Part shown: positions 23,601 to 41,318 of the stretch, one piece after another
Numbering within the stretch: the first letter of the stretch is position 1
Layout: every line of letters starts with the position of its first letter
Made by a program: the position numbers and the translations under genes
Notes under the pieces: generated by a model
What the model saw: the letters and a program-made list of their open reading frames with translations, nothing else
Told to the model about the DNA's origin: nothing
Databases searched by the model: none
Source: a virus
IMG/VR virus record: IMGVR_UViG_3300032286_000710
Coordinates: 64,001-128,000 of that record
DNA: 64,000 nucleotides
Direction: 5' to 3' (one strand)

Positions 23601-26600
23601 ACTTGTAATTATCCAAAGGCCAATTATATCCACTCGGTCTTTCTTGTCTTCTATATACAAATACAGTGCCAGCTTCTTGTAGTGTTAAGTTTGATCCAAC
23701 CCCACTATTATATACTATTGATCTTTTTGGTGATCCTATTGCTAGTAAATTATCTTTAGATGCAATTGATTTTCCAAATTCATCGCCAGAAGTTTTAGTA
23801 ACACTAGATAGTAATCTAAATCCACTGTAATCTGTTGAAACTTGATTGGTTTCATTTTTGTTATATTCTACTTCTACTATTTCTGTTGGTATATCTATAG
23901 GATTTGTAGAACCAGACTTGCCAGTTATATTGATAGAGTAGGGGAGGTTGGGAGCCAAACCTGTATATTTTCTAATTCCATAGAAGTGACCACTATATGG
24001 CATAATGTCATAAACAACTGTGTTGAGAGATGACTCAGTGGAGATGAAGTCATTACTTTCTGTAGAAAGTGTAAATAGGTTTTCTGTGGCTATATTAGTA
24101 GCTTCGTTTTGACTAATAGTATGTCTGAATGACCCACTAGGATAAGAAAGGTTTGTATATGTAGATTTAGCTCTGAATATACCGCCATCAACACAAACCT
24201 CTGGGTCATACCACTTTACTCCATGAATATCTACCACTGCTTCTGAGCATCTGTTGTTATAAGAGCAAGTTCCATAGCATAGTAAATCAACTCCACGAAT
24301 ATTATCGTCAGAATCAACATAAGCATAGCTATTATCTTGAACTGTTATATTTTGACCAACATTATCATGAGTCCACTTAATAGATGCACTACTGTTAGCA
24401 AGAGAATCAGATATTGGATAATTTACAGTATGTAAGCTTAAAGATCCAGAATCTACAACTCTACTAAAATCATCGCTCAATACAAACAGTGGGGTGTAGT
24501 TATTTATTTCAGTTGAAAATTCTTGTCCATATACATAGAATGGCATACTAGAATATGGGTAAAAATCTTGAGACTTAGATATTCCCCGAATAGCCAAGTT
24601 TATATATTCATTTTTAACAATATCATCTTGTACTAAAGTGCTTAAATTGACATATGATTCAGAATAGTATCCAGATCCATATATAGATAAGGGCATATTT
24701 GTTTCTGTCATGAATTGACCACTAACAGATAATCCTAATCCCTTTATTGGAGATGAGCCAAACATATCTCCAAATACTTGATCTTCTGTAGAAATTGATC
24801 CAATAGATATAGTATGCATAGTTAGATATGGACTATAGCAAGGATATCCGCTACTACCAACAAACATATTAAGACCAGATCCAATTGGTCCATTTCCACT
24901 AACAAATAGATTAACACCAGAGTAAATAATAGGCCCATTTTCTGGAGCAAATAGATTTAACTTTGATACTTGATATTGTTGACCGCTGGTAACTAAATTT
25001 AATTGACCACTTGATTTTTCACTAATATATATAGCATCGTCTAGCCGAACATTTGAACTATGTAATTTAATCAGTGATGAAAATGGTCTTCCAGATGGAT
25101 AAACTAAATCGTATTGCAAAAACATATCGTCTATGTCTTGAGAAAAATATTTTTCCTTAAATTCTTTTGTATACGATTCTTTATCAAATAAAGCCCAAGG
25201 CTCTGAATCATCTAACAAATCCGTAAAAGAGAATTTACTAGTAAGTTTTCTTATACATCCAGATGGTTCTAAATAATGAGTTGATCTATTTATTAAACCA
25301 AATGATTTACTTGGTCTATCGGCATTATCTTGAGTCTTGGCATATAAACTAACAATTAATTTGGGGCCAATTTTCCCATTTGGCCATACTATATCATTGC
25401 TTGTGTCATGCTCTACAATAGTATCAACACAAATAGCTTCTTCATTGAATTTATAACCCCGTGGCAATGTTTTAGATATTCTAGGAGCAATTGCATAGAA
25501 TCTATCTTTGTCAATAGTTGGAATATTAGATAGATTAAATCTTAAAAAATCATTTTCTATTTGAGTGTGATATGCAACTCCAGAAAGATTTACATTTGAC
25601 GGGAGTGGTAAATTAGTAATTTGACTATAACCAGAACCATTGTGCTTCAAATTAAAACTTAAGAAATCCTTGCTATCTCGCTTGGTGAAAAAATCAAAGT
25701 CTGGAGAGAATTGACATACTCTGAAGTCTCCAAGATGCCATAACGAAATGTCATCATCAACATATGAATATTGATTTGATCTTGCATTGGCTGAGAATAT
25801 ATTGTTAAAGTGCATCCTATGAGAAGAAAAGAACTCAGATGCTGTTAATTGATTTAAAAAGCCAAAAGCGTTTGGATTATATTCTACAATATTGCATCTA
25901 CCATTAGACCAGCCCACTTCATGCAAGAACATTGGCAACGGAGGGGATGCTGAATACTGATTTGAATAACCAATATAAGAAGTACCACCAGTTAATATTT
26001 TAGTTGATATTTGTGGCTGAGATGCCGCCCTCATATTATTGAATGATGTAGCTAACTCATTCTCTGTATACAATTTATATCGATAAGTATTATCATCATT
26101 ATATGTAATTAAGACGGATAATGGAAATTGATACTGACTTATATTTTGAGTATCACTTAGTGTAATAATATTGTCATTAGAGTCTTTAACTTTAAGTTTT
26201 AACACTCCGCTTTCATACACAAGAACAATTGACCAAGTTATATTATTTTCATAAGCAAAAATTAAATTATTATTTAATAGCGTATTTGTTACTTGGTCTG
26301 GAGTAAATCTAAGGAATAAAGTGAATCCAAAATTTTTAGAAGTATCTCCATAATTAGTAAATGAGTCATTATTTAATATGTATAGTTCTAATTGATCATC
26401 TGATGATATTCTAGCTGCTCTATCAAAAGCATCAAATATATTATCTTTCCAAGATATGGTTTTATATGGGGTTGTAGTAAGAGTAAAAAGCTGATTAGAA
26501 GAATATCTCCAGCCAAAATTAGATAAAATATTTAAATTGTTCTCTGTTTGACCAACAACAGTTCCGCTTGATGATAGGATATTGTCACCAACGACGTTTG

Positions 26601-28839
26601 TGAAATCTACATAAGAAGTTAGGAATGGGCTTAGTGAAGGAGTATGATTAAACGAAAGATCAAATTGTTTTGGATTAAAATAATCTCTACCAGAAAGAAC
26701 ATTTCCATCATTACCCCTCCATCGTCTGGAATAATTTGATTTTATATACTCTGGTGTTGTTAATCCTGTTAATACTCCGCTAAGTTTTACATTGGTGTTT
26801 ACCTGTGTTCCATTAACATTTGATGATGGTAATAGAGTAATATTTTTACGTAAAGCATTTTTATCTACCGGACTACCAAGAGTATGCATTTGAAGTGCAT
26901 TAGCAGGCTTATAATATACAACTAATTTGACACTGCAAATAGATGCCCCACTAGGAATAGGACAAATATCTAAATATAGATTTTCAAAAAGAGAACTAAT
27001 AGAGTATTTCTTATATCCAAGTTCATATGGATTTTGATAAATGTCTAGTGGGATAGTATATTCTTGGAAAGATGTACTATTAACCAGCGGGGTGCTATTA
27101 AGTATATAATGATCACCTTCTGGAGAAGAGTCTTTTTTAAAGTACTCGGATTGATCTGAAAGACTACTATCAGAAATACCAAATGTCTTATAGGTGTAAC
27201 CAGAGATATCTGGCACTGAATTAGTATCAAAAACTAGCGCACCGCTATTTTGTACAAATCCGCCAACTGCCTGTGTAACATTTAATAATTTATCATCACT
27301 GTATCCAACAACATCTATTGTATAGTCTGGAGTACCGGTAGCTTTTTTAGCAATTACTTTTAGTTCTAAACTGTCTATATCAAAGAAGTTATCGTTATCT
27401 AAATAATTTACAAGTTTGGCATCATTAAAGTCTTTACTGCCGCCAAAAGAGAATGCCCCATCTATATAATTGTCATAAGCTTCTCTGTCGGGCTTTGTAT
27501 TAAACTTTAATACTATTCTTCCACTATCTGAAACCGGGGAAGAATTTATTACAGTAATATAATCTCCAGTTAAGTCATTTCTAATTTTATTTAGTAAATG
27601 GGAAGCACCAGAAGATGCTGTGTTATCATAGTTTATGTTATTTGTAGTTGATCGCCAAATGCTGCTAGCCTGTGGATAAATACCATTATCAAAATTATAT
27701 GTTAATAGTTCAGTTGGAAGTAGTGTTCTCTTTTCTCGTTCAGATTTGTCTCTAACTTGAGAGTAAAAGTTTAGGTAACTATCACGAAGTATTCCAACAC
27801 CGCCACTGCTACCAATTTCAAGCGATGATATATTTAGGCTAATGAATGGATTGGGGCTTATATTATTTGGATTGATTATACACGATTGTTCGTAACCAGT
27901 ATCAAAATTGCTAGTAAATGGGTAAGCATTACAATCATATGCTATATTTAATGTAATAGTATAAGAACCGGCAGCATCCATCAATGGATATTTGCTGTCC
28001 CAAGTTGGTAGCAATAGATTATTAACTAGCGGTTTAGATAAATAGGTAGTATAATAAGTATCACCACGGATTAGCATATCTTCATATTGAATTATTAAAT
28101 TGCCGCTAGGATCTTCAAATTTAATATCATATATTTTATACTGTTGTGGTTTTCTTTGTATATAACTATCAAATGGTGCTGATGCTCTAATAGCTAAATA
28201 GCTTAGTTTAGCAACTGATACTGGCTTTGCAACGCGAAACTTATACTGAATATCACCAGAAGTAAAAATTGTAATAGTAAGAGCAAATGATTTTGAATCA
28301 TCAGATATAACAGATCCAACCTTGCCATTATCTACATAGTCTCCAGTAAAAACCCCCTCATCAATACTGCTATATATGTTAGTTGGATTAAATATATTAT
28401 TTTCAACTTTGTAGACATTTATACTAGTATTAGTAAGTTTACTTTTGAAAGAAATATCTTGAATAGGATATAGTTTTTCATAAGCTCTAAAGCCGGGTTT
28501 GTATCCAGCAAACTTATCTGTATAAGAACTCTTAAAATTTCCAGAAGAGGATATTCTTGAATTAACACCAAGGTTGGCGGTTGTATATCCCCTAATATTT
28601 CCAATGCCAAATTCAGAAAAATCTTCTTTGGGCGAGAAATCGACATTCTCATTAGCTAATAATTTAGCAGTACCAGATAGCGAGGTCTTTAGGTTTCTAT
28701 AAACACCTTCTTGTAATCTGATAGTTGCAATAGAAGAGGGTCTAGACGAAAGACCATGATTAAAAGATAAAGTTGCTAGCAGGCGACTATCAGCACCTAG
28801 CCTAGTCTTATCGTTTGTACTGCAAAGTAAAGAACTCAT
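17626..28839 (-). CDS. Giant tail protein with seven FG-GAP (integrin-alpha-like) repeats, a LamG-like segment and LNLF repeats
   Basis: EFGKSIA, QFGHSVD, RFGHAVS..VIGSP, RLGYSVD..ASAP, LFGYSVC..VGSP, HFGHSVA..VGSP, RFGSNVY; FTLFLRFTP LamG-like start; directly follows the TMP. Confidence 0.75.
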   Translation of the reverse strand: MSSLLCSTNDKTRLGADSRLLATLSFNHGLSSRPSSIATIRLQEGVYRNLKTSLSGTAKLLANENVDFSPKEDFSEFGIGNIRGYTTANLGVNSRISSSGNFKSSYTDKFAGYKPGFRAYEKLYPIQDISFKSKLTNTSINVYKVENNIFNPTNIYSSIDEGVFTGDYVDNGKVGSVISDDSKSFALTITIFTSGDIQYKFRVAKPVSVAKLSYLAIRASAPFDSYIQRKPQQYKIYDIKFEDPSGNLIIQYEDMLIRGDTYYTTYLSKPLVNNLLLPTWDSKYPLMDAAGSYTITLNIAYDCNAYPFTSNFDTGYEQSCIINPNNISPNPFISLNISSLEIGSSGGVGILRDSYLNFYSQVRDKSEREKRTLLPTELLTYNFDNGIYPQASSIWRSTTNNINYDNTASSGASHLLNKIRNDLTGDYITVINSSPVSDSGRIVLKFNTKPDREAYDNYIDGAFSFGGSKDFNDAKLVNYLDNDNFFDIDSLELKVIAKKATGTPDYTIDVVGYSDDKLLNVTQAVGGFVQNSGALVFDTNSVPDISGYTYKTFGISDSSLSDQSEYFKKDSSPEGDHYILNSTPLVNSTSFQEYTIPLDIYQNPYELGYKKYSISSLFENLYLDICPIPSGASICSVKLVVYYKPANALQMHTLGSPVDKNALRKNITLLPSSNVNGTQVNTNVKLSGVLTGLTTPEYIKSNYSRRWRGNDGNVLSGRDYFNPKQFDLSFNHTPSLSPFLTSYVDFTNVVGDNILSSSGTVVGQTENNLNILSNFGWRYSSNQLFTLTTTPYKTISWKDNIFDAFDRAARISSDDQLELYILNNDSFTNYGDTSKNFGFTLFLRFTPDQVTNTLLNNNLIFAYENNITWSIVLVYESGVLKLKVKDSNDNIITLSDTQNISQYQFPLSVLITYNDDNTYRYKLYTENELATSFNNMRAASQPQISTKILTGGTSYIGYSNQYSASPPLPMFLHEVGWSNGRCNIVEYNPNAFGFLNQLTASEFFSSHRMHFNNIFSANARSNQYSYVDDDISLWHLGDFRVCQFSPDFDFFTKRDSKDFLSFNLKHNGSGYSQITNLPLPSNVNLSGVAYHTQIENDFLRFNLSNIPTIDKDRFYAIAPRISKTLPRGYKFNEEAICVDTIVEHDTSNDIVWPNGKIGPKLIVSLYAKTQDNADRPSKSFGLINRSTHYLEPSGCIRKLTSKFSFTDLLDDSEPWALFDKESYTKEFKEKYFSQDIDDMFLQYDLVYPSGRPFSSLIKLHSSNVRLDDAIYISEKSSGQLNLVTSGQQYQVSKLNLFAPENGPIIYSGVNLFVSGNGPIGSGLNMFVGSSGYPCYSPYLTMHTISIGSISTEDQVFGDMFGSSPIKGLGLSVSGQFMTETNMPLSIYGSGYYSESYVNLSTLVQDDIVKNEYINLAIRGISKSQDFYPYSSMPFYVYGQEFSTEINNYTPLFVLSDDFSRVVDSGSLSLHTVNYPISDSLANSSASIKWTHDNVGQNITVQDNSYAYVDSDDNIRGVDLLCYGTCSYNNRCSEAVVDIHGVKWYDPEVCVDGGIFRAKSTYTNLSYPSGSFRHTISQNEATNIATENLFTLSTESNDFISTESSLNTVVYDIMPYSGHFYGIRKYTGLAPNLPYSINITGKSGSTNPIDIPTEIVEVEYNKNETNQVSTDYSGFRLLSSVTKTSGDEFGKSIASKDNLLAIGSPKRSIVYNSGVGSNLTLQEAGTVFVYRRQERPSGYNWPLDNYKSPWVLETALTLPSGMLKDYYTQSELDLGLSYNLKPTQTKWFVGQEGRQFGHSVDLSVNKNEKSLGENSRQTIVVGGPSAKWTPRIFDNNPPSGVNIGLMVFTDEFTPRIHAPLPNRPFRTIGYEEVLEAIKDKDIIFNYFGNPRIKFNTKLMICQPIADSPDIVPPSFPDKPDFMVLNSISRNDGYELNLTKTEAIVSGMKDAFFEAFPYDATKIHNNIPPILGLYVDNSSSLGRDSLEPAIDQFISFYKKYSFDNGLRDFNGVKESGQVIEYIPDTYDAENWVEMSTSILSEVLDTGNLVKNNQVRFLTASVGTFNTNLGAFNIPPESGGKAYIFEKESGNWNLIQEIRSPNVTYSNPDRFGHAVSISDDGELVVIGSPYINQAVTMYERKEEERDRFYSLLPDWVIRNYPEKYAPALYSYDQSIKNSEDIKSLYLALTPEHKFKSRVDLGIEEYQNIYTFDYSSMQPNGSWSFIPDAVAPTSRLGYSVDVNEDGSVVVASAPTDSLNLYNDSNIYYNYGGKYSTGYNDPYSIVPNNVKSSWSSSVNAGSIHVFESRKYYPHNQAIEYGRFGNLHEIDSNNTPDSGHFHYLADIFEDKNFVKTEFAQNSIPKEAGLVFIITPKEDAITESDEVYNNIYNWLALGDRNLVLVANDPIWEDAGKYKNSNDILNKLLERLNSRMRIVPARSKYESLPVGYSTFNNIIPSFIPQGSTSTYVQRTSLRGSGVADIKIYYPGYKEIMPCEEVGDCTPEQTTVQIQSRCEMPLIHYGDLRSQWNASCCTNGGLLIYGHNWPFIFGSYKPACGDTEFPDNPKANFEPIPLLAAAEKVTYDVNYPAVPAQYKNFPIYETVYTSTPYYTFGSPVSQVPDFIWDSGTVPSGLSLNVSSSISEGRFYQPEEGLLQAKGISKINVTPYISKEVVADKNYYCVEHSYAKTTSKIIILAGVETESKSALYSGQGDQNVKFYANLVSKNLKTKGYSDIAQLGAWTGRKSFTDGYANSLLKTVFRNGNKVVEDVDTSFTVADRVCLTNVFNVAWVANIVSQPSSLELGDIKTWLAYGDKKLIITCGNDLDSLKNAQTLCSKLGVSVGPVFLTYLDQYAQNNSGFEINDGHQAGGQFNNNKIEYFTAGVTFYPLKLTSGGIGVAYNDQPIYDDVPKTNTNIYWDMNAGVTKLSIPAIPCSGYKLFITTLSETSSETAPLDIDIENATYLPNLPYPIDYASSQVNELNSDGEVTPYKLIENGVPTARCEGTATKTIDLQVSSGVDNINVYISCAIQRFAIGSQFIPKTTKLMGISGVLIPVYQSNTVVGSQIPTNQFETVKISEEEPAFTETVQLIRPISTDNTKYCSDKCLAKGLGGQLIDDGPVVAAQEVEILSPFNVGVARSRITVITDSSILQGRYVADEGGVIPVDTLTFIRSLYPETNFPSTTYGRQFDKYKKLISPERGSPSKYFGQGALSGLNVNFGNAGTVALSTINQYESQYDPKYVTRPDIPWKDETEEKKILEIKNQFISGFLSSQISSASTARFSGIVDGIMYSDATIAGGLPQLLKDKGYDYLDLDKLPSGYRGDLFGYSVCVRGEKILVGSPFSAFGSESITPWSSGLQLRLGYDGGAGSVYMFEKPSEDSWTCSRKFRPQSLMGQLSGVNTLSDHFGHSVAMQNDTIIVGSPNHDYGNYYGVVFNSGSFARKNFNPQFDIPTYNVSDLGYSGVRATLNSDGIYGKNTGAIYVYENKITDWENKKQGWKLIEKILPSPKVPSGSLSISERFGSNVYLSRPYRSDADYTIFAGCYTASGDGILNIGAAYSKDIMLRKQRPSLANSGAWIDAKVFGDTWSGDDHIVNLRFSNSGNNISYYGSGVVVSNSDGEIFVEVSGQDPSTRGFISHRPYIESIIGQYQYGQILENGMILFCEGQNPPPSSQINLFIDVENSAYVYNTLGLYGSVMTDVVSTSPSGLNLFIESPSGITSSLNLFAPSGIGSLNDNLNLQVRGK

Positions 28840-31800
28840 ACTACTCCCGAATTTTCCTTTAGTCTTCCGCCGTCACCGGCAACTAATCTAGTTTTGACAA
28901 GGTTAAAAATCTCTTGTTTTACTTGAGATGTTACAGCCTTTAATAAACCGCCATCATTTAGGTTAATATTTACGTTTGTAGAATCTAACTTGATAGTGAT
29001 CTTACTATCCCTTAAAGACTCAACATTCTTAGATAATTCTCTATTGAAATTTTCAAGGGCGGTAGCAAAGTTTGACATTCCTTGGCTTTGCTGTTCTGGA
29101 CCATTACTACCTTGACCTCTATATCTAACCACGCCACCGCTTGCCATAAGGGCTGTGCCACCACTACTAGATACACCTCCAAGCCCACTATTCATCGCTT
29201 GTAATATTTGTAAATTATTGCCCCGCTGGACTGCACCCCTATTTACTACAAATTCACCGGGAGTTAGCATCGCTGGGATAGTATCAGTTCCGCGAGGCAC
29301 GAAAATACCACGACTTGCATATACCATGCCACCTCTAGACATTGCTTTTTGGTCTTCTATTGCTTGAGCCTCTGCCGCAGCCTTATTACCCTTGGCCATA
29401 ACCTCCTTAAACTTCAAATCAGCACTATTTACATTAATTGTGGCTGTTTCAACTTGCATTTCGGCCATTTGAGTTCCCATATTGCCAGTTTCGCCTAGCA
29501 TTCCACCTAATTCACGAAGCCTAGCCTTACTAGCCTCTTCTTCTGCGGTAGTTCCAGCCATAACTTGGGCGGCTCTCATGTCTGTTACACCCCTAGATGA
29601 TAAAGCAGCATTGGCAGCAGTTTCTGATAGACCACCAGCACCAGCTAATTGCTGACCATATAAACTTTGAACGCCAGCTTCTTGTTGACGTTGAATATCT
29701 TGAGATGCCATTCCAAGAGCATCAGCACCATAAAGATTTTGTAATCTGGTATCACCACTAGCTATAGCAGCGGTAGCACCAACGGCAGATTGCTTCTTGA
29801 AAAAATCTTCTACATCTCCCTTAATAAGAGATTCCATAGAATCTTTTTCAAGTTTATTCTTTTCTTGAGTAATCTTAAGTTGTTCTTCTTCTAGCTTGAT
29901 TAAGCCCCTAATGGTATCAATTTGTGTTTTGTATGCTTTCTGTAGATCTTTTTGTGCTTCATCTGCTTCAACGCCAGATCTCTTTTCCATACCGCCCTGC
30001 TGAGTTCTTCTTCCTTCTATATTAGAGAATCCTGCCATAATCTCAGCATTTCTTCTTCTTAAATCTCCAACATCTCCACTCTTCATATTTGTTAATCCTA
30101 GTCTGCTGCTTTCAACATTAGACTTAGCTAACAAATTATCTTTTCTCTCTCGTCCAGTAACGGCTTGACCGCCATACTTACCTTGAATTTCTCTACCTTC
30201 CATCACAAGATCAAGAGCTTCTTGTTGTGCTGCTACAAGATTTCTCTCAGAATCAATTCTCTTCTTGGTAAAGTCAATTAATACCTGTTCTGCTTTTGCC
30301 CTTTCTTGAGAAATTTTCATTATGGGTTCAAGCATTTTTTGCTGAGATTCAGTGAGCTTATCTCCAAAAGCACTTAAATCTCCACCAATTATCTTATCTA
30401 CATCACCCGGTTCTAATTCTAATGATTGTATAACTTTCTTGAGGTTTTCTTTTGCTTCACCATTTCCCATATCTTTAGTTAATTCTTCTGCAAATTTATC
30501 CTTTAGCTTATTAGCATTTAAACCCTTAAAATCTTCAGCTTTCATTGACTTTTTGATATTGGCAAATGCTTGAGTATAATTAGACTGAGCTTTAGTAAAT
30601 GCAGCAACATTGCCTTCAAACTTTTGAATATATTTTTCAGAAGATCCAAACTCTCTAAGATTATCTGAAACTCCCTTTACAGCACTTTGGATTTCACCAG
30701 AATCCATAGCCTGTGCAGCACTACTCATTGCTGATTGTAAAAACTCAACGTCATTTACGAATGATGATCCGCCCACTTCTAAACCGGCAGAGAATTTACT
30801 CATGCTAGCTGATAATGCAGTAGCGGTTGCTGTTGCAGAACGTAAACCAAGATTTAAGGCATTATATAATTCTTTCTGACGTTTAACTTCTTTTTCTATA
30901 TTCTCTATTTCTTTATTAACTTGTTTTAACTGTTCTTCCATTTGAGCAGCAGCGGCAAAAGCTGCTTTAGCTCCTTGTTCATCTCCCTTTAATGCTAAGT
31001 CTCTACCTAATGCTTGTTGAGATTTCATTCCAGCCAATAAGCCTTTAGTGGCTTCGGCTTTAACCTCATTTGTACTTTTACCCCTAGCTACTCCAGATCT
31101 AATAGCGGCTTGTCTAGCTGGAGCTTCAATATTAAAAGCTTCTTGCTGTTGCTTGGCGGCTGAGTTTATTTGATCTGCACTTTCTTTTCCTAATCTTGTA
31201 TTACGCGCCCCCGTAGTCTCCATAAATGGATTTAAACCACCTAAAGCTCCAACATTTCTTAGAAAACCACTATCACTATAAGCATTTGATCTATTTTTGA
31301 CATTTTCTTTCGCAAATGAAGAAGCCCGATCCATTTGAGCATTTGCTTCTCCGCTTTTAGCTCTAATCTTTGCCAAAGCATCAGAAGCTGAAATAGTTCC
31401 TTTTTCAAAATCGCTCATTGCTTCTGTAGAAACTTTTTGAGCTTCTTCTAATGACTTTTGAGTTTTTACCGCTCCAGCTTGGGCTGCGGCTAACGCTACA
31501 ACGCTATCAGTTGTTGTTAAAAATGATTGACTAGCGTTAATAAGACCAACGCTAAAACCAACAATAGCACCAGCTGCTGCACCCACCGCTGTTCCTAGAA
31601 CCGGAATAATACTACCAATAGCAGCACCAGCCGCTGTTGCTGATAATACTCCACCAGCACCACCGGCACCTTTTTCAAAATTTGCTTTTTCAAGGGCAAC
31701 CTTTTTAGCACCTTCTACGTCGCCTGATTCTATAGATTTTTTTAATCTACCATCAAAATTGTAAATACTTTCTGCAACAATCTTAAAAGCTTCTTGAGCA

Positions 31801-34800
31801 AGGTATGCACCACCAGCAATAGCGAGTAATGGGCCAGCCAGTTGAGTTACAGCATTAACAGTTTTCATAATGGCTACAGATGAATCTCTGCCAAATCCCA
31901 ATCCTTGAGATGCGCTAAGAATACCTTTTTTAGCACCTGTACCTAAACCACTACCGCCAAAAAATTTCATAATAGACTGCGATTTTAATTCTATGCCAAA
32001 GGCTTGTAAAGCAAATAATACTCCAGCTAGCGTAGTTACAATTCCAAGAAAAGAATGTGATAATTTAGTCAAAGCAGATGAGTTTTCGTCAAGGGGAGGA
32101 AGCATGGCTTGTAATGACGCTGTAACCATTGATACAGCAATAGCTGCTCCACCAATATCTTTTGGCATCATTCCACCTAAACCGCCAGAGCTTGGGCTTT
32201 GAGATTGCCTTTCACGATTTTTAATTCTAGCTTGGGTATAAGATTGTTGTCTATCTGCTTCTCTAAAATTAGATTGAGTGCCACCCTGTAATGTAGAAGT
32301 TACGGCGGTAGTTGCAGCTTGTTTATTGGATTTAGCTTGTGCTATTAAAGCACTTTGCCTATCCATCAACTGGGTTTGTTTGTCTATAGTTACTGCGTGT
32401 TTTTTCTTTATACCTTCTAATTTTTGTTCTTCAGCAATAGCTTTCTTATCTATTTCAATCCTTTTCGACTCAGCATCAATTTTCATCTTAAGGATTTTAT
32501 TAGCGGCTGGACCAGTTGCAGCTGCTTTTCCTTGTTGTGCGGCTAGAGTTGCTAGCACTTTGTCGTAATTGCTAATTCTTCCATCTAAAGCCGAAGATTC
32601 TTGATATAAAGCATTAGTAATCTTACCTTGTTTGTCTAATGAGGTAGATAATATTTTGAGATAATTACCAGTTTTTTTCATTTCTTGGGATGTGGCAGCA
32701 ATTTCACTCTGAATTGCTTTATTATCAGCTAATCCAGAAATACTAGATTTAACACTACTAGATGTTACCCCACCCCCAGCAGCAAAGTGTTGAACAACTC
32801 CACCGCTAGCATATTTGCCAACTTTATTCATCCTATTTAACGCACCGTAACCAATCTTTTGTGCAGATGATCTATTAACAACAAACTCACCGGGAGTTAA
32901 TAAGGCGGGAACTGTGTCAGTACCAACTCCACCACCAGCTGCAAATTCACGGCGACCTTCATAGTCACGCATAGTCTTGCCTCGTACAGCTAAAGATGAG
33001 GCTATTCTGTTCTGATTATTAGCTTGATTTTGCTGCCATCTTCCATAAGCTGCGGACTGTGGTGGCTTATATGTTGTAAGCCATTTTGGGGGTTTAATGC
33101 TACCTTTTCCACCCCAACTGGTATATATAAAATCTCCCCTATCGTTTCTTGAAGTAAATAAATCGATAGCATCTTTTTCGCTTAGAGATGGATTACCCTG
33201 CAATTCTCTCATTGCTTTAACAACGTCAGAAGCTAAATATTTTTCAGTTCCTTGATTTATTACTTCTCCACCTTCTGCAAACTTTTGAATAAGGCCACCA
33301 AGATGTGCTTGTACTGCTTTTTTACCTTTAAAAGCGTCTATAGTTCTGGGCATCACAGATTTTTCTGAAGACATTGGCCCCATAAATTCTGTTTGATTAT
33401 TTATTAATCTTATATAATCATCAAATACGTCTAATGCTAATTGATTATTAATTTTTTTGGTAAATTCATCTGAAGAAATATTAGTTCCTCTATGCCCCGG
33501 ACTAACTTTAGCATCTACATAATTTATACCAGCTAAATTTCTATACATGCTACCTATTGGTCTAACACCTCTAGTAAAATCGAATGGTCTTCTAGATTCA
33601 GATCCAGAAATAGGCTTATCATTAAATGAATCTAAAATAATTTCAAATAAAGATCCAATTAAACCTTTTGGCAAAGATTTTCTAAAATCTTCTGTAAATG
33701 TTGGTGGAGAAGCTCCAGATACACCCATGCTATTAGCAAGTTGACCAGCACTTTGAATTACGGCATTTTCTATTGCTGGACCAAGAGCATTATTAAATGC
33801 TTGGTATTCATCTTTAGTTACCCCTTCTGCTTTGGTCTGATAAATTTTAGAACCAAAACCAAGAGCTTGAGACATTATTGCATCTAATTGCCCTTTTGGG
33901 GTATTACCGCTATATCTTTGTAATAAACTAGAATTACCAAGAGGAGGAATGCCGGGAGTAGCGGTCAATACGCTTCTAGCATTTACGGAAGCTGATCCAT
34001 TTATGGCAGTAGCTGTATCTGGCTTTTGATTGTTTAATAAATCGCCTACAGCCATACCTGCATTACTTTGAGTAGCTATTCCTCCAGCTGCATATCGGTT
34101 ATTATTCATAGCAGCTAGTGTTCCAGCACCCATCTTATTAACGCTACTCTTGCGTATAACGAACTCGCCGGGAGCTAACATTGCTGGCACAGTATCGCCA
34201 TTACCACTACCGGGAACTAATCCGCCCCTAGCAAACCCAAGAACTTTACCGCCCTTATTATATGTTCTGCCAGAAGCAGCACCGCTCATCATACCACCAA
34301 AGAAACTACCCATACCCTTAACTAGTTTAAATGCTGTTAAAGCAGCAAGCATTGGTAATAGGGGCTTGATAGAATCTCCGATTTTAATTAATGCTGAAGC
34401 TAATGATAATGCTGTATTTGCCATCACTTGGAAAGTAGAAGTTTCAGTAATACTACGTACTAATGCCAAGAATTCTTCTTTAACTTTCATTATTCTAATC
34501 GCAAGTGCCGCTTGTGAAGATGCAGCATCTTGAGTTAAAGAATCGCCCGCCTTCATTGCAACATTAAGCGCAGATTGAGCAGTAGAAAATTGCTGTAACA
34601 GTGGAAGAACTTTACCAATCTGTCTGAATCCACCAAGCTCTTCTGCAATTCTAATGAAAGTAGTATCACCTTCACCAAGTCCAGCTAGTGCTTCGCTTAG
34701 TTTTTTAATAGCCTCATATGGGCCAACGAACTTACCATTCAAGTCTACAAGCTCAACACCAAATTGTTTTAAGAACTCAATAGTCTTGGGTCGCTGAATA

Positions 34801-35606
34801 CGTGTGAAAATAGTACGTAAACCAGTACCAATACTTTCAGCACTTTCTCGGGTTGTGGCTCTTACACTAGTAAATAATGCAAGAAGTTCATTAAGATCAC
34901 CACCAGATGCTTTGAACACACCGCCCGTTCTACGAATAACGTCAATTAAGTCACCAGCTTCAACGGCGAAAGCACCAGCAACAGCATTAATAGAGCCTAA
35001 TTGTTTTTCTAATGATCCAACCCCCTCTTTGAATTGAGCTAGAACAGCAATAGCACCTTCGGCTGTTTCTGTTATACTATCAAAGTTTGGAGCTAATGCA
35101 GACTTTGCTAAAGTCTTTAAAGCTACCGCTGTATCTTCAGCACTTAAACCAGCTTGGGCCAAGATAGTAGAAACATTAAGTAAATCAGAAGACGCAACAC
35201 CAAAACCAGTAGATAAATCAGTAATCTGTTTAGTTAGTCCACGAAGCTGAGTCAAACTTTTTCCAGTGACCTGAGAGACTTTAATTAATTGTCTCTCAAA
35301 GTCAATGGATGTTTGAACAGCGTCACTAAGAGTGCTAGTGAATAAACCAACCGCCCTTGTGGCAATAGAAAAGGCAGCAAAACGCCTAATGGATAGAGCA
35401 AATGCTTTACCCATGCGTTCTGCTGCTGTTGTTGCTTGATTAGTTGCTTGAGCTACTTGCTGAATTTGTTTTTGAGCTTGTCCAGCATTCTGGACTTGTA
35501 TGTTAACACTAACGCCATTTAACTGGCTTTGTATTTGTTGTACAACTTGCTTAACATTATTCGGGGCTTGTAACTGTAATTGTGCGGTCAGTACGAATTT
35601 GGACAT
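28836..35606 (-). CDS. Tail tape measure protein (TP901-like core) with inserted modules
   Basis: FERQLIKVSQV..LAQAG..ESAESIGTGLRTIFTRI core, Ala/Gln/Lys-rich helical body, three GxDT(V/I)PA(M/L)LxPGEFV motifs; AAAGGAG RBS. Confidence 0.92.
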   Translation of the reverse strand: MSKFVLTAQLQLQAPNNVKQVVQQIQSQLNGVSVNIQVQNAGQAQKQIQQVAQATNQATTAAERMGKAFALSIRRFAAFSIATRAVGLFTSTLSDAVQTSIDFERQLIKVSQVTGKSLTQLRGLTKQITDLSTGFGVASSDLLNVSTILAQAGLSAEDTAVALKTLAKSALAPNFDSITETAEGAIAVLAQFKEGVGSLEKQLGSINAVAGAFAVEAGDLIDVIRRTGGVFKASGGDLNELLALFTSVRATTRESAESIGTGLRTIFTRIQRPKTIEFLKQFGVELVDLNGKFVGPYEAIKKLSEALAGLGEGDTTFIRIAEELGGFRQIGKVLPLLQQFSTAQSALNVAMKAGDSLTQDAASSQAALAIRIMKVKEEFLALVRSITETSTFQVMANTALSLASALIKIGDSIKPLLPMLAALTAFKLVKGMGSFFGGMMSGAASGRTYNKGGKVLGFARGGLVPGSGNGDTVPAMLAPGEFVIRKSSVNKMGAGTLAAMNNNRYAAGGIATQSNAGMAVGDLLNNQKPDTATAINGSASVNARSVLTATPGIPPLGNSSLLQRYSGNTPKGQLDAIMSQALGFGSKIYQTKAEGVTKDEYQAFNNALGPAIENAVIQSAGQLANSMGVSGASPPTFTEDFRKSLPKGLIGSLFEIILDSFNDKPISGSESRRPFDFTRGVRPIGSMYRNLAGINYVDAKVSPGHRGTNISSDEFTKKINNQLALDVFDDYIRLINNQTEFMGPMSSEKSVMPRTIDAFKGKKAVQAHLGGLIQKFAEGGEVINQGTEKYLASDVVKAMRELQGNPSLSEKDAIDLFTSRNDRGDFIYTSWGGKGSIKPPKWLTTYKPPQSAAYGRWQQNQANNQNRIASSLAVRGKTMRDYEGRREFAAGGGVGTDTVPALLTPGEFVVNRSSAQKIGYGALNRMNKVGKYASGGVVQHFAAGGGVTSSSVKSSISGLADNKAIQSEIAATSQEMKKTGNYLKILSTSLDKQGKITNALYQESSALDGRISNYDKVLATLAAQQGKAAATGPAANKILKMKIDAESKRIEIDKKAIAEEQKLEGIKKKHAVTIDKQTQLMDRQSALIAQAKSNKQAATTAVTSTLQGGTQSNFREADRQQSYTQARIKNRERQSQSPSSGGLGGMMPKDIGGAAIAVSMVTASLQAMLPPLDENSSALTKLSHSFLGIVTTLAGVLFALQAFGIELKSQSIMKFFGGSGLGTGAKKGILSASQGLGFGRDSSVAIMKTVNAVTQLAGPLLAIAGGAYLAQEAFKIVAESIYNFDGRLKKSIESGDVEGAKKVALEKANFEKGAGGAGGVLSATAAGAAIGSIIPVLGTAVGAAAGAIVGFSVGLINASQSFLTTTDSVVALAAAQAGAVKTQKSLEEAQKVSTEAMSDFEKGTISASDALAKIRAKSGEANAQMDRASSFAKENVKNRSNAYSDSGFLRNVGALGGLNPFMETTGARNTRLGKESADQINSAAKQQQEAFNIEAPARQAAIRSGVARGKSTNEVKAEATKGLLAGMKSQQALGRDLALKGDEQGAKAAFAAAAQMEEQLKQVNKEIENIEKEVKRQKELYNALNLGLRSATATATALSASMSKFSAGLEVGGSSFVNDVEFLQSAMSSAAQAMDSGEIQSAVKGVSDNLREFGSSEKYIQKFEGNVAAFTKAQSNYTQAFANIKKSMKAEDFKGLNANKLKDKFAEELTKDMGNGEAKENLKKVIQSLELEPGDVDKIIGGDLSAFGDKLTESQQKMLEPIMKISQERAKAEQVLIDFTKKRIDSERNLVAAQQEALDLVMEGREIQGKYGGQAVTGRERKDNLLAKSNVESSRLGLTNMKSGDVGDLRRRNAEIMAGFSNIEGRRTQQGGMEKRSGVEADEAQKDLQKAYKTQIDTIRGLIKLEEEQLKITQEKNKLEKDSMESLIKGDVEDFFKKQSAVGATAAIASGDTRLQNLYGADALGMASQDIQRQQEAGVQSLYGQQLAGAGGLSETAANAALSSRGVTDMRAAQVMAGTTAEEEASKARLRELGGMLGETGNMGTQMAEMQVETATINVNSADLKFKEVMAKGNKAAAEAQAIEDQKAMSRGGMVYASRGIFVPRGTDTIPAMLTPGEFVVNRGAVQRGNNLQILQAMNSGLGGVSSSGGTALMASGGVVRYRGQGSNGPEQQSQGMSNFATALENFNRELSKNVESLRDSKITIKLDSTNVNINLNDGGLLKAVTSQVKQEIFNLVKTRLVAGDGGRLKENSGVV

Positions 35607-35639: not shown

Positions 35640-36518
35640 TCATTCACTATCCGTTGCTGTTGACTTCTTTTTCTTAGTGGGTTTTTCTGTTTCTTCTGCT
35701 TTTACTTCTTTATCCTCATCGTCTACATATGTTACGGTAGGAATATAGTTACCATTTTCGTCAAGAACATTGCCATCTTTATCTACTCTTTGACCTTGAT
35801 CATTGAGCCAATATCCTTGATTATCTATTCTTCGCCCATCTGTATCTACGGTTTCGCCCTTATCGTTTACCAAGCTTAGATTATCGTCCACAAAGTGGAA
35901 CATTTTAAGGAACTTATTCTCTGGTAGTTTGGCCTCAAAGTCCTTATCTACAGAATACATCATACCAGCTAAACTAGAAGCTGCACTAAAAGCGATCTGA
36001 TCGTCGGATCTTTCCTTATAGTCATCTAGATCATTATACACTTTCTGTCCATTTTGATAAAAAGCAGAATTTGCCACAAGGTAGTCAAACCTGACATTAT
36101 CGGAAATGGATTCTGCGGTGTTTTGCTCAAGACTCATTTTTTCAGCAATTAAGTCTCTAAGCTCATTTCTCTTAATTCTCATTTGAATAGCAATGTTCTT
36201 GCCCTCAGAAGCCTTAAGCTTTTTGCCACCACTACCACTAACGTAGAGTTTTCTTTCAAGATTTGAAATCTCTTGAATTACCTTCTTCTGCTCTTCGTCT
36301 TTGCCCTCGTCCCAAATGCCCTGCTCTTTCATGAACTTTTCAAGTTCCTTTTTGGTCATAATTCCTTCACGAACACAATCGGTCCAAGCCTTTGCTCCAA
36401 CTCTTTGGGCAGAAGAAATTAATGAACTACTGGGGCGTTTGACTACAATCTTTACGGCTTCTTCTTTTCCGTCTTTGGTAATCTTTACATCAACGATCTT
36501 TTCCTTATCCTGTGACAT
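35640..36518 (-). CDS. Putative tail assembly chaperone (paralog A)
   Basis: Directly upstream of the TMP; GGAGG RBS favours ATG at 36518; acidic; similar to 36870..37913. Confidence 0.55.
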   Translation of the reverse strand: MSQDKEKIVDVKITKDGKEEAVKIVVKRPSSSLISSAQRVGAKAWTDCVREGIMTKKELEKFMKEQGIWDEGKDEEQKKVIQEISNLERKLYVSGSGGKKLKASEGKNIAIQMRIKRNELRDLIAEKMSLEQNTAESISDNVRFDYLVANSAFYQNGQKVYNDLDDYKERSDDQIAFSAASSLAGMMYSVDKDFEAKLPENKFLKMFHFVDDNLSLVNDKGETVDTDGRRIDNQGYWLNDQGQRVDKDGNVLDENGNYIPTVTYVDDEDKEVKAEETEKPTKKKKSTATDSE

Positions 36519-36533
36519 GGTTTCCTCCACTTA

Positions 36534-36866
36534 TTAGTTATTAGGGTTAATTACGGGTATCTTCATCTGATATCTTGTCCACTCAATTTCATATTGAGCT
36601 AATTCTGCATCAATATTTCGTGCTTGATTATTTCCTCGGTCAAGTATTTCTGACCTGACTTTATTATATAAATTTTTCATTACTTCTTGGTCTTTTGTTA
36701 GCGGACTTCCAGATTCGTTAGTCCACAAAAAACTAAAGTTTTCTTCTAGTGTGCTTAAAGCACCTATCATAGTAGTCTGTATTTTCTTTTTGAGAATCTT
36801 AGATAACCTATCTCTTGAGTCAGCTTTATATTTTGATTCTCTTGTTTTCTTATAGTCTGGTTCCAT
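36534..36866 (-). CDS. Hypothetical protein in the chaperone region
   Basis: 110-aa ORF with GGAGG RBS. Confidence 0.6.
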   Translation of the reverse strand: MEPDYKKTRESKYKADSRDRLSKILKKKIQTTMIGALSTLEENFSFLWTNESGSPLTKDQEVMKNLYNKVRSEILDRGNNQARNIDAELAQYEIEWTRYQMKIPVINPNN

Positions 36867-36869
36867 ATT

Positions 36870-37913
36870 TTATCCTCCCATTTTTCCTCTCATTTGATTA
36901 GTAGTCATCATTTCTATATTACGTCTTTGATCTGGCAAGTTTTGATCTTCTACGTATCCCTTCTTTTGAATTACTGCATCTCTTTGTTTTTTAATTGCCT
37001 TACCAAGTGGATCATTCATATCGTGAATTTTATTTATTCTCTTATTATCATTAGAAACTATAAATACTTCTGATGAATTCTTTATTCTTTCATTTTTTGT
37101 ATCATTCTCAAATTCTTTTTCTACTCTATCTTTTTCTCGTTTTTGGTGCTGAACTATAAACCAACCATCTAGCATATCATCATCTTCTATTACTTCTTTA
37201 TTTGGACACTCCATAGATTCTTGAATATTATCATACATTTGCGACCAAACTAAAAGATTTTTTTGGTTATATGTTAATTCTGTGCTTGAAGGATTGGCAA
37301 ATAGCGGAGATCCAGAATTTTCTCTAGTTATCCATACAGATTTCCAAGGATCATTTCTAGCTAATTCTCTAGACTTATTTTCTGGTATAAAATGAGACTG
37401 CCATTCATCTACAACATATTGCAACGACAATTCTTCAAAATTATAGAGCTTACCATTGAAGTATGTCGTATTTTTTACTATCCAAGCTAATCTTTCCGCA
37501 GAGGCAACGCCTTCGCATGTATTTTGATGATATATATACTTTTTATTTAAATGTGCCGTTAATTGTGATTCACCGGCTCGTATATATTTTCTTATATTAT
37601 TAGCTAATGTGTCATTATCCCTAGCGTTGTAGATTTCTACTTTTAATCTCTCAATATCTTTTTTGAATCCTTCCTCTCTTTTATTATCATGCATAGTCCA
37701 TAATTCATTTTCCATCATCCACTGATCCATATCCTCTTCTGTCATTATCTCTTCAGAATAAGCCTTATCATAAGCCTCTTTATATATTAGACAAGATTTA
37801 AAAGATTGATCAAGTGTTAACGGGCATATTTCTAATTCTATGTCCTTGTGCTTTATAAATACCTTTCCAGATCTTATCATAGAAATAAAAAACTCCCGCT
37901 CATGATGTTTCAT
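36870..37913 (-). CDS. Putative tail assembly chaperone (paralog B, GT-like extension)
   Basis: Follows the tail tube gene; its N-terminal half aligns by eye with 35640..36518. Confidence 0.55.
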   Translation of the reverse strand: MKHHEREFFISMIRSGKVFIKHKDIELEICPLTLDQSFKSCLIYKEAYDKAYSEEIMTEEDMDQWMMENELWTMHDNKREEGFKKDIERLKVEIYNARDNDTLANNIRKYIRAGESQLTAHLNKKYIYHQNTCEGVASAERLAWIVKNTTYFNGKLYNFEELSLQYVVDEWQSHFIPENKSRELARNDPWKSVWITRENSGSPLFANPSSTELTYNQKNLLVWSQMYDNIQESMECPNKEVIEDDDMLDGWFIVQHQKREKDRVEKEFENDTKNERIKNSSEVFIVSNDNKRINKIHDMNDPLGKAIKKQRDAVIQKKGYVEDQNLPDQRRNIEMMTTNQMRGKMGG

Positions 37914-37936
37914 ATAGACATCTCACAAGCGGGAGC
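37887..37936 (-). terminator. Terminator/attenuator hairpin enclosing the start codon of the downstream gene
   Basis: GCTCCCGCTTGT-GA-GATGT / loop CTATATGAA / ACATC-ATGAGCGGGAGT, followed by a T run. Confidence 0.7.
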
Positions 37937-37984
37937 ATTTATTTTGTTTTCCTTTTGAATCCTAATAATCAGCTAATTTATGTA

Positions 37985-39172
37985 TCAAGCACCACGATAA
38001 GATGGTCCGTATCCAGAGGTTGGATTATTTGGGCTAGCTATTAAGTCTTGTGGATGAGTAACAGTCATGCTATTATAGGTTGAATAACTATAAGTCATAC
38101 TACCATTACCACCGCCAGCATCAGCACCTTGGTAGTTAACTGAAGATAATCTGCTCTTTGTACCCAAATCAAATACTGTGCCGTCGTGTAATTTAATCAT
38201 GATGGTTTCTTCTGAAGTATTATTACCATAATTTTCACTAGTTGAAGGAAATTTGCCAACATCACCTTCTTCATAGGCATTAATGAAATCTCCAGATACA
38301 GCAATAACTTCAAATTCGCATGTTACTTCTACTGGGAAATTAGCAAATCGATAGTATGGAGCTTTTCTACCTAATTCTTGGATACTTTCTCTATTTAAAT
38401 CTGTGCTAATTGAAATATTTTGAAAGTGAACATTTGGCTTTAGTGAAGAAGAATTCCAAGCATTTCCAGCTGTTGCGCTTTGGGCAACTCCGTAAATAGA
38501 TTTTGGAAAAATAGAATTTTTTATATCTACATTTTCTCTTCTTTGAATACCACCGTAAGTAGTTCCAGCCTGTAAATTCTTTGGTTTATCAAGATTTCCA
38601 ACCGCCCCGACCCAATCTAACTGTAAAGCAACCGCACTTGTAAATTTGGAAGTATTCCAAGCTTTATGATTGCCAACTAGAGTGAGAGATTCTGTGCAGT
38701 TACCATCTGTTGGAAGAGTATAGCTTATACTACTCACATACATACCACTCATTTGAACTTCTGCTGTAGCATTAGCAGCAGCATCAGCGATATGCTCAAC
38801 AGTGTCTGGGAAAACACCTAAATACACATTGCATCTTTGTTTTGATCTTGCTACTAGTGATAGTTTGCTGGCACTACTAAGTCCAGATTCTTGATCTACG
38901 CCACATGTGGCAACATGATACATGAGTGGAAATCCGTCAAGCACCTTTTCTAGTGTAACTTCAACGTCTGGTACACCTTCGATATTTTCGTAAATATGGA
39001 TCTGACCTAGTTCGAAAACTTGTTCTAGATTGAATGTTGTATTTAGGCCAATGCTTTGAACGCCATGTAAAGCCTGTACTCCCGTTGACATTGGCGTTAG
39101 AGTGCCAGCGTTATCATATAGTGGCTCAATAGCGACCGCTTGGCAAGCGTAGAAGATTCTGTTGTTGGGCAT
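37985..39172 (-). CDS. Major tail (tube) protein
   Basis: HGVQSIGLNTTFNLEQVFELG and the internal repeat ISTDLNRESIQELG, typical of tube folds; strong AGGAG RBS, own promoter motif, position before chaperones and TMP. Confidence 0.75.
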   Translation of the reverse strand: MPNNRIFYACQAVAIEPLYDNAGTLTPMSTGVQALHGVQSIGLNTTFNLEQVFELGQIHIYENIEGVPDVEVTLEKVLDGFPLMYHVATCGVDQESGLSSASKLSLVARSKQRCNVYLGVFPDTVEHIADAAANATAEVQMSGMYVSSISYTLPTDGNCTESLTLVGNHKAWNTSKFTSAVALQLDWVGAVGNLDKPKNLQAGTTYGGIQRRENVDIKNSIFPKSIYGVAQSATAGNAWNSSSLKPNVHFQNISISTDLNRESIQELGRKAPYYRFANFPVEVTCEFEVIAVSGDFINAYEEGDVGKFPSTSENYGNNTSEETIMIKLHDGTVFDLGTKSRLSSVNYQGADAGGGNGSMTYSYSTYNSMTVTHPQDLIASPNNPTSGYGPSYRGA

Positions 39173-39207
39173 AATTCTCTCCTATTTTAAGATGGTAAGC
39201 TCTAGTT

Positions 39208-39217
39208 ACTTATACAC
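39208..39217 (-). promoter_or_regulatory. Putative late promoter GTGTATAAGT
   Basis: GTGTATA core about 40 nt upstream of the tail tube start. Confidence 0.6.
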
Positions 39218-39222
39218 TAAAT

Positions 39223-40194
39223 TTATACTGAAGTTTCAATTGTCTCAAGCGTCATCCTCACAATACCAGCATAGAAATTGCTATTTACTAGCTTCATATT
39301 TTGAACGCTAGAATTTTTTAATCTCAAACTCCCACGATAGTACTTATCTATTAAATCTGGGTATCTTAAAGCTCCAGAAACCGGAAATCCGTGATAATCT
39401 AGAGGAAATGCGCCACTTCTGGCTATGTTATTACTATTAAACATGTATATAGTCTTCTCGTTTTGCAAAGAAATAATATCTACTAATTTATTTCTAGTAT
39501 ATTCATCCTCTGCCAAACAGTGGAAAAGTAAATCTGTTTCAACAAATTGACCACCCCCAAGCTGATATCCCCTCATTGTTCGACGGGGAACTACTTCTAT
39601 AGCTATTACTGGTAATTGAATCCTGGCCTCTGTTGGGAGTTCATATTTACCTTTATTTAATACATTAAAGTCAGTATTAAGATCTAATGATGAGTATTGA
39701 ACTTCAGCCAGCCAAGGAAGGCTATTAGCATAAACTATATTGATGTACCTATAACTATACTCGGCTTTTACGATGCTGGATGTAGGAATAGGATTATTAA
39801 AGATAATTCTACCATTAAAATAGTCTACTTTATGGGCATATGTGCCATTAGTGTTGGATGGGTAAAATGTATTGTTTACATAAACTCCAGAAATACCGGG
39901 AATTGAGTTATTATTTCCAACAATTGGAGAGGGAGTATAAGAAACCCCGCTTTGCCATACCCAGTTTTGCCTAAAACTTTCCCAAGCCTTACCGCTAGGA
40001 AAGGAGGAATTGGAGGACATTCTAAGTTTACTATAATCTACACCTTCTGGAGAAAGTTCGCCAAGGGATACATTCATGTAGTTCCCTTTTTCTAAAAGCG
40101 ACCACTCCAAAAATTCAACTATATTATCTTGCAGTTCATTATTTAACGTACTGTCAAATACACTGTCAAATCCTTTAAGATTTAGATAGTTCAT
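39223..40194 (-). CDS. Putative tail completion/terminator protein
   Basis: QLPVIAIE..GYQLGGG..DLLFHCLAE..RNKLVDII pattern; position before the tube gene. Confidence 0.55.
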   Translation of the reverse strand: MNYLNLKGFDSVFDSTLNNELQDNIVEFLEWSLLEKGNYMNVSLGELSPEGVDYSKLRMSSNSSFPSGKAWESFRQNWVWQSGVSYTPSPIVGNNNSIPGISGVYVNNTFYPSNTNGTYAHKVDYFNGRIIFNNPIPTSSIVKAEYSYRYINIVYANSLPWLAEVQYSSLDLNTDFNVLNKGKYELPTEARIQLPVIAIEVVPRRTMRGYQLGGGQFVETDLLFHCLAEDEYTRNKLVDIISLQNEKTIYMFNSNNIARSGAFPLDYHGFPVSGALRYPDLIDKYYRGSLRLKNSSVQNMKLVNSNFYAGIVRMTLETIETSV

Positions 40195-40832
40195 TATGCA
40201 CCTAGTATATTTTCAAAGATTTTAGCTATTTGTTTTTCTTGTTCACTGCCGGTTAAAGCGCGAGTTATAAAATTATTTTGATCTGTTCCAGAAAATTGTG
40301 GGGGTACTCTAAAAGAACCTCCCTCTTTCATGTTACCTAATCTAGATCGTCCCAAGCCAGTTTGTGGGTTGTATTCATATCCAACTACTATAATTTCATC
40401 TCCCCTATTTAATAACCAATCTAGCCAGTGTAAATCTCCATCTTTATAAATAGAATGACCTTGGGGGAGATTTAATAAATTAGCAAAATTGTCTGGTTGA
40501 ATATTAACTTCAATACCGCCACCCTTTAGTTTATTATTATATGGAACTACCGATATACTTGTTGAGCTTACTACCGAAGATATAATAGCATTAATTATAG
40601 AAGCTGCACTAATAGTTATGCCGAACTGACCAATCAAGGATGAAGTGCCTCCAGAAGATAAAGATTCCATTTCTGGTTGGCTTGATATCCAAGACGGTAA
40701 TAACAAATTTATTTCTTGAAGTATTTTAACTTTGCTAGATTTCATAGAAGCATTGAATTGAGTAGCTATAGCAGATAGTATATTATTTTCTATCTGATCA
40801 ACTGACTCAAGTAATTTGAGCGTAATGCTCAT
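40194..40832 (-). CDS. Putative neck protein
   Basis: LHWLDWLL..G and C-terminal SGTDQNNFITRA (gp10-like end); gene order. Confidence 0.5.
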   Translation of the reverse strand: MSITLKLLESVDQIENNILSAIATQFNASMKSSKVKILQEINLLLPSWISSQPEMESLSSGGTSSLIGQFGITISAASIINAIISSVVSSTSISVVPYNNKLKGGGIEVNIQPDNFANLLNLPQGHSIYKDGDLHWLDWLLNRGDEIIVVGYEYNPQTGLGRSRLGNMKEGGSFRVPPQFSGTDQNNFITRALTGSEQEKQIAKIFENILGA

Positions 40833-41311: not shown

Positions 41312-41318
41312 AAGTCAC

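Follow-up and report, generated by a model that had tools for sequence, protein, structure and literature searches.

The tape measure protein (TMP) of an uncultured phage carries a slot with exchangeable contents, and the borders of this slot lie at short glycine-rich motifs of the type [FYM]AxGG (FAxGG for short). The gene is located in a window of 64,000 nucleotides, which comprises bases 64001-128000 of the 166,604-bp IMG/VR virus record IMGVR_UViG_3300032286_000710, a record with direct terminal repeats. All nucleotide positions given here are those of the window. The protein (P0001) contains three copies of a module of about 60 amino acids (aa). The segments between the first two copies, termed beads here, assort independently between phages with near-identical flanks, and the breakpoints sit at the motif. 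The swapping of cassettes at FAxGG is well supported, because 45 bead arrangements occur among relatives and nucleotide identity breaks at the motifs.

P0001 is encoded by a single open reading frame (ORF) that holds every motif considered here. PF10145 matches aa 126-313 with 91.2 bits (cut-off 33.2, E 1e-25), TIGR01760 matches aa 89-387 with 100.7 bits (cut-off 28.8, E 8e-29), and several TMP PHROGs match as well. The ORF, 2256 aa in length, is read from the minus strand and is surrounded by further large structural ORFs. On the strength of these sequence matches it is assigned to the TP901-type TMPs, as a member of a very large metagenomic family.

An earlier note on this DNA, made from its letters, had listed [FYM]AxGG-like motifs in this region, and all of them are found in their places on the minus strand within the one ORF (Table 1). 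The sequence DT[VI]PA[ML]LxPGEFV, which it had reported three times, is present at 34158-34196, 32880-32918, and 29247-29285 (minus strand). [FYM]AxGG occurs seven times in P0001. In 2000 shuffles of its residues the motif turned up 0.25 times on average and never more than four times. The modules follow a common plan, consisting of [FYM]xxGG, a short spacer, G-x-DT[VI]PAxLxPGEFV[VI]x[RK], a stretch leading to L..MN, and [YM]AxGG. They are the most conserved part of the TMP among relatives. A delimiter with the consensus K-K-x-[LF]-G-G-[LI]-I-Q-K-F-A-x-G-G is without the DTVPAML core, yet it closes every bead. A hidden Markov model (HMM) of the module gave no match outside the TMP in the whole 166.6-kb genome. 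Tandem modules that overlap are found in several relatives, and the number of module copies reaches five or more in some.

Eight related viral contigs (including L002, L003, L004, L008, and L009) have colinear TMPs with all three modules. Their identity to P0001 is 80-100% for aa 1-500 and 83-100% within the modules. Directly after YAAGG (aa 509) the amino acid identity collapses to 0-35%, and it returns at the FAEGG delimiter or at module 2. A second collapse past module 2 is present in three of the five distinct relatives. Nucleotide identity is 80-90% through codon 509 and 35-45% from codon 510. In L003 and L004 it returns to 73-93% near codon 770, all relatives regain identity near codons 886-890, and it falls again near codon 945. 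P0001 groups with L002 and L008 in aa 946-1130 but with L003 and L004 in bead 1, which makes the gene a patchwork that has four or more junctions.

The N-terminal 520 aa, used as a query, retrieved 2427 proteins with E values no higher than 1e-10. Among the best 120 of these 2427, identity over this part is 64-99% (all but two at least 75%) and length is 1361-3071 aa. For a census of the beads, the inter-module region of 183 TMPs was cut after every [FYM]xxGG and the pieces were clustered. This yielded 318 beads, 43 families, of which the main recurring ones are narrow in length, and 45 arrangements. With the families given as numbers, arrangement (0) is the most abundant (88 of the 183 TMPs), followed by (0,1), which is that of P0001 (18), (0,2) (14), (0,4) (six), (0,5,1) (five), and (0,2,3) (four). 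Others, including (0,3), (0,3,1), (0,1,3), and (6,9,0,2,3), occur fewer than four times each. The TMP P0233 has a bead 0 that is 66% like that of P0001 and no bead 1, and P0143 has a bead 1 that is 82% like that of P0001 behind a bead 0 of the L002 type. The alignment of relatives that the earlier note had proposed as a check on swapping between the motifs thus gives a positive result, with 43 families, 45 arrangements, and breaks at the motifs.

Bead 0 is closed by the short delimiter HLGGLIQKFAEGG (aa 768-780). The two segments between the motifs had been put at about 260 and 107 aa, close to the 271 aa (510-780) and 107 aa (781-887) measured for beads 0 and 1. When a profile of the 260-aa segment was compared with 1.84 billion representatives, 133 proteins were recovered. 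Nearly all are TMPs of 2000-4300 aa that match at about 500-1000, and in these TMPs bead 0 always lies between two modules. Two HMM iterations detected bead 0 in 191 of 192 long TMPs. This indicates that bead 0 is a single homologous domain and a constant component of the TMP, and it refutes the proposal that the 260-aa segment is interchangeable cargo, since a homologous hypervariable domain is present in nearly all family members.

The sequence of bead 0 varies strongly, and TMPs that are 96-99% identical to P0001 over the first 520 residues have a bead 0 that is about 26-28% identical. Among 179 copies the conserved residues are G651, F654, E655 (99%), F675, D676 (99%), F677, and G680, and D698, A699, and K700 are conserved at 84-91%. 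An AlphaFold 2 (AF2) model of bead 0 from 66 sequences has pLDDT 90-98 over about 240 residues and pTM 0.71. AF2 predicts mixed alpha/beta domains for both beads, contrary to the non-helical segments of the earlier note. Foldseek finds no fold match for the bead 0 model in PDB and BFVD (best E above 0.07). VIA-align finds none either among 48,161 chains, where the best Z of 4.1 involves helices only, and Pfam gives no match. Bead 0 looks like an enzyme or a metal-binding domain, and it evolves very fast.

Bead 1 is a small alpha/beta model by AF2, with pLDDT 85-93 for aa ~779-845. It has no Pfam match and no PDB sequence match by phmmer, and Foldseek (PDB and BFVD) and VIA-align gave nothing above noise for the models of both beads. 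L002 and L008 are without bead 1, and in these the delimiter FFGGPISKFAAGG is fused directly to module 2. In L009, bead 1 is replaced by a 207-aa segment of other sequence, an ADP-ribosyltransferase (ART) cassette. This segment matches PF03496 (ADPrib_exo_Tox) with 20.5 bits (E 3.4e-4), below the cut-off of 23.4, and aa 1067-1276 of P0188 match the same family with 28.5 bits, above the cut-off. A Pfam search of 18 diverse related TMPs shows PF03496 in two (best E 4.7e-7) and PF01129 in one, and the remaining sampled bead families have no Pfam match. Six aligned ART beads keep F[LV]STSK and ESE, which are the STS and ExE motifs of R-S-E ARTs. Bead family 3 looks like an ART of this R-S-E type. 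P0001 and its two beads have no ART match in Pfam and are not listed by an ART pattern scan, and phmmer of the L009 ART bead against PDB sequences found nothing meaningful. In P0188 the ART occupies a second slot, flanked by module 2 on one side and by a tandem module pair (1600-1652 and 1644-1698) on the other.

The module has counterparts in known phages. Module 1, compared by phmmer with PDB chain sequences, matches Douge gp16 twice (964-1011 and 1411-1459, E 9e-5), Pseudomonas phage JBD30 gp46 (1014-1072, E 0.015), and lambda gpH (725-783, E 0.84). An HMM of all module copies of the family matches lambda gpH at 732-784 (32.8 bits) and Orion gp28 at 955-1005 (28.0 bits) and 1618-1676 (38.8 bits). 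A tblastn search with module 2 reaches 362 GenBank phage records, mainly annotated TMPs of Mycobacterium and Gordonia phages, and also cyanophages and marine single-cell viruses. A profile made from five near-identical module copies found only P450 noise among PDB sequences and was worse than the single sequence. At the level of sequence, the module is homologous to those of lambda gpH, JBD30 gp46, and the mycobacteriophages Douge and Orion. These four proteins share the plan [FY]AxGG, PAxhxxGE[FY]V, [FY]AxGG over about 55 aa. Lambda and JBD30 have one near-C-terminal copy, whereas P0001 has three, two of which are internal and bracket the polymorphic slot.

In the tail structures of lambda, Douge, and JBD30, the module region has no resolved residues. 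The lambda gpH structure has residues 818-849 built and about 690-817 unresolved (PMC12617516), the Douge TMP has residues 1658-1699 built, and the JBD30 TMP has its last 33 residues built. The JBD30 authors predict that gp46 1022-1066 is a hook of two helices and a beta-hairpin. They compare this hook with the end of T5 pb2*, which is anchored in the hub once it has opened, and speculate about a cut at 1066. The Orion TMP (L010, 1126-7101) has two modules about 600 aa apart (aa 955-1676). Pfam gives nothing at E 0.01 or better on the whole Orion TMP, and its inter-module region contains, by eye, an NlpC/P60-like YSWG...H pattern.

Table 1. Coordinates of the TMP gene, its modules, beads, and motifs in the window
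Feature	Residues of P0001	Position	Strand	Basis or remark
TMP gene, 2256 aa		28836..35606	-	Single ORF, PF10145, TIGR01760, TMP PHROGs
Conserved N-terminal TMP core	1-448	34263..35606	-	80-100% identity across eight related viral contigs
Module 1 (YNKGG, FARGG, DTVPAMLAPGEFV, YAAGG)	449-509	34080..34262	-	96-100% conserved in relatives
Bead 0, alpha/beta domain (predicted)	510-780	33267..34079	-	Profile/HMM searches, AF2
Bead 1, optional 107-aa cassette	781-887	32946..33266	-	Present in 29 of 183 TMPs
Module 2 (FAAGG, DTVPALLTPGEFV, YASGG, FAAGG)	888-945	32772..32945	-	83-90% conserved in relatives
Second mosaic stretch	946-1130	32217..32771	-	Common to L002/L008 (68-74%), not L003/L004/L009 (12-40%)
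Hydrophobic glycine-zipper-like membrane segments (putative)	~1151-1207 and ~1318-1359	31529..32156	-	Kyte-Doolittle windows at least 1.5
Module 3 (MSRGG, GIFVPRGTDTIPAMLTPGEFV, MASGG), canonical near-C-terminal position	2089-2158	29133..29342	-	Motif and alignment
C-terminal 98 aa, putative tail-tip part		28839..29132	-	Analogy only, with lambda, T5, JBD30, Douge
YNKGG		34248-34262	-	
FARGG		34221-34235	-	
YAAGG		34080-34094	-	
HLGG		33294-33305	-	
FAEGG		33267-33281	-	
FAAGG		32931-32945	-	
YASGG		32799-32813	-	
FAAGG (second)		32772-32786	-	
MSRGG		29328-29342	-	
MASGG		29133-29147	-	

Outside the slot, DUF1269 matches weakly at aa 1324-1358 of P0001, and related TMPs have glycine-zipper Pfam matches. 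The C-termini of the lambda, T5, JBD30, and Douge TMPs occupy the baseplate hub, and by analogy the C-terminal 98 aa of P0001 may be the part held in the tail tip. The TMP gene is followed by a 3737-aa ORF (17626-28839, minus strand) that overlaps the TMP stop codon by 4 nt and has an FG-GAP repeat near aa 3397-3420 as its sole Pfam match. Ten large neighbouring structural ORFs (7425-17626 and 35640-43627, minus strand), among them one of 1560 aa and one of 1087 aa, lack PHROG matches. Pfam finds a sub-threshold DUF3659 in ORF 35640-36530 and nothing else in these ten. The phage lineage is very poorly charted, yet it has thousands of metagenomic TMP relatives.

The protein thus comprises a conserved N-terminal TMP core, module 1, the bead string, module 2, a long, putatively helical part with membrane-type glycine-zipper segments, module 3, and a putative C-terminal plug. 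The polymorphic slot between modules 1 and 2 consists of the obligatory bead 0 and up to five optional beads from dozens of families, which include the putative R-S-E ARTs, and P0001 has bead 0 and bead 1. On this anatomy a model of TMP function is proposed. TMPs occupy the tail tube with their C-terminus towards the tip, precede the DNA on ejection, and are believed to form a trans-envelope channel (PMC12617516). The TMPs of lambda and T5 are cleaved during tail assembly (PMC12617516, PMC10038345). Since TMPs exit the tail before the DNA, and an ART depends on NAD+ and on targets in the cytoplasm, it is probable that the beads are cargo, and their delivery into the host is plausible. They would be carried by the N-terminal third of the TMP and enter shortly before the DNA, while the hydrophobic glycine-zipper part (aa 1151-1359) would form the channel. 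The delimiters would be retained because they act in their own right as a linker, an anchor, or a processing site. Because they are conserved DNA, they may also serve as crossover points, providing homology for cassette exchange. Taken as a whole, with a module-bounded slot, probable cargo, and delimiters used both for exchange and as linker, anchor, or processing site, the model is considered rather probable. The polymorphic effector-delivery polyprotein of the earlier note survives in part, in that swapping occurs at the motifs and some beads look like ARTs, but bead 0 is not swappable cargo.

Cleavage at or beside FAxGG is possible. Lambda gpH is cut within a glycine-rich region into gpH*, of about 78-79 kDa, and gpHC (PMC12617516). 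From the mass of gpH*, the cut is calculated to fall at about residues 710-730, directly in front of the module. Maturation cleavage adjoining the module is known only for lambda (PMC12617516). T5 pb2 is cleaved after R1127, between FVPR and AEGG (PMC10038345). Module 3 of P0001 includes GIFVPR, in which FVPR (29292-29303, minus strand, aa 2102-2105) is the tetrapeptide that precedes the T5 pb2 cut, and this may be a four-residue coincidence. It is rather unlikely, in our estimate, that the TMP is a true polyprotein whose FAxGG or hook elements are cut to release a phage-specific set of effectors into the cell ahead of the DNA. The cut would be made by a protease of the phage or the host, or else by bead 0, with its unmatched fold and its invariant Glu and Asp. 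If it were, the same element would account for the unexplained maturation cleavage of lambda gpH.

Several results weigh against the proposed model. The JAB and NlpC/P60 peptidase families are absent from the 166.6-kb genome, and no protease is recognisable by Pfam or PHROGs among the 10 neighbouring genes. The module HMM has no match in T5 pb2, the best-studied cleaved TMP with cargo, and the module as a monomer gives a low-confidence AF2 model (pLDDT <60). No function is recognisable for the two beads of P0001 by Pfam, PDB sequence, or fold searches. No relatives split into separate genes at the motifs are seen among short database matches. Short free-standing bead-0 proteins were considered as split genes and rejected, since they are contig-end or adaptor fragments and hence provide no evidence for splitting. 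The short database proteins P0021, P0062, and P0072, which match bead 0, end in translated Illumina adaptor (for example ...IGRAHV and ...SYTHLRAHET), and such adaptor-ended short proteins are assembly artefacts in public collections.

The modules and delimiters may instead be uncleaved structural hooks or linkers that anchor the TMP to the lumen of the tube or hub, or that aid oligomerisation, while the beads stay attached. The motifs would then match the mosaic junctions only as the sole conserved DNA available for homologous recombination. The hook predicted at JBD30 gp46 1022-1066 and its likeness to the T5 pb2* hub anchor, the high conservation of the modules, and the lack of a protease in the searched families (JAB, NlpC/P60) and the 10 neighbours are in line with such a role. 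The lambda gpH cut, however, adjoins the lambda copy of the module, and delimiters that close every bead without the DTVPAML core are more easily understood as sites than as folds. The reach of an ART would also be limited if it stayed fixed within a TMP that spans the membrane. A purely structural role is considered possible but doubtful. A different explanation is that the inter-module region is a hypervariable surface under immune pressure, through defence sensing or contact with a variable host envelope or channel, and not cargo. Its diversity would then mirror escape or host range. A bead 0 that is about 28% identical between TMPs with 99% identical N-termini would be expected of such a surface, and its obligatory presence in the family differs from typical accessory cargo. 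In contrast, the invariance of E655 and D676, together with the conserved D-A-K, suggests a conserved chemistry, and the optional beads include true enzyme families. This explanation is considered unlikely.

Bead 0 could also be a PD-(D/E)xK nuclease delivered with the TMP. The series E(655), 21 aa, hDh(676), 22 aa, and D-A-K(698-700), conserved in 84-99% of 179 sequences, resembles such an active site. In contrast, AF2 places D676 in a loop, and the order of the secondary structure departs from the alpha-beta-beta-beta-alpha-beta core. A nuclease fold was detected neither by Foldseek (PDB, BFVD) nor by VIA-align (48,161 chains), and Pfam has no match. The nuclease reading is not adopted, because the predicted topology and the fold searches give it no support, and it is regarded as very improbable.

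Among known systems, the proposed cargo-bearing TMP resembles T5 pb2, which likewise measures the tail and carries an enzymatic part that is released into the host. The cleaved C-terminal fragment pb2C has a metallopeptidase motif with reported muralytic activity and a proposed periplasmic role (PMC10038345). T5 pb2 and mycobacteriophage TMPs have embedded cell-wall hydrolases at fixed positions and not a shuffled array with ARTs. The polyvalent proteins of phages and conjugative elements are giant, mosaic, virion-associated multi-effector proteins, often with a zincin MPTase, for which delivery with the DNA was proposed (Iyer et al. 2017, PMC5512222), and ARTs are their commonest protein-modifying domain (PMC5512222). 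They resemble the TMP family described here in their extensive mosaicism and their ARTs. The polyvalent-protein paper (PMC5512222) makes no mention of TMPs. Its ARTs are of the H-Y-D clade, whereas the TMP beads look to be of the R-S-E type. The two groups share neither the FAxGG delimiter nor the zincin MPTase domain. No enzyme family was detected in P0001 by Pfam or TIGR, and the ESM Atlas gives a weak lead to LPD38 (score 0.83). Sle1-type TMP-related effectors of actinobacterial contractile injection systems have interchangeable domains, are loaded in the tube, and are ejected (PMC13277306, PMC11126660). They are the cargo of a non-phage nanomachine with a C-terminal variable domain, whereas a phage ruler with internal, motif-bounded cassettes is described here.

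Thus TMPs with embedded hydrolases, the cleaved T5 and lambda TMPs, ART-rich polyvalent proteins, and TMP-derived modular effectors were already known, and no prior description of the PGEFV motif or of ARTs in TMPs was found in the literature. The new elements are a widespread, unnamed TMP module, which is triplicated here and which, with its short form, delimits a polymorphic slot to the codon, and the obligatory hypervariable domain of unmatched fold within this slot. TMPs enter the cell ahead of all other phage proteins, and their processing and cargo are poorly known outside lambda and T5. The dozens of uncharacterised cassette families, among which ARTs are recognisable, are candidates for early host takeover or anti-defence. 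If the motif is a processing site, it would be a pointer to the unknown mechanism of gpH maturation. The motif is also a searchable boundary that connects the polymorphic cassette slot with the module conserved in the TMPs of lambda, JBD30, and mycobacteriophages.

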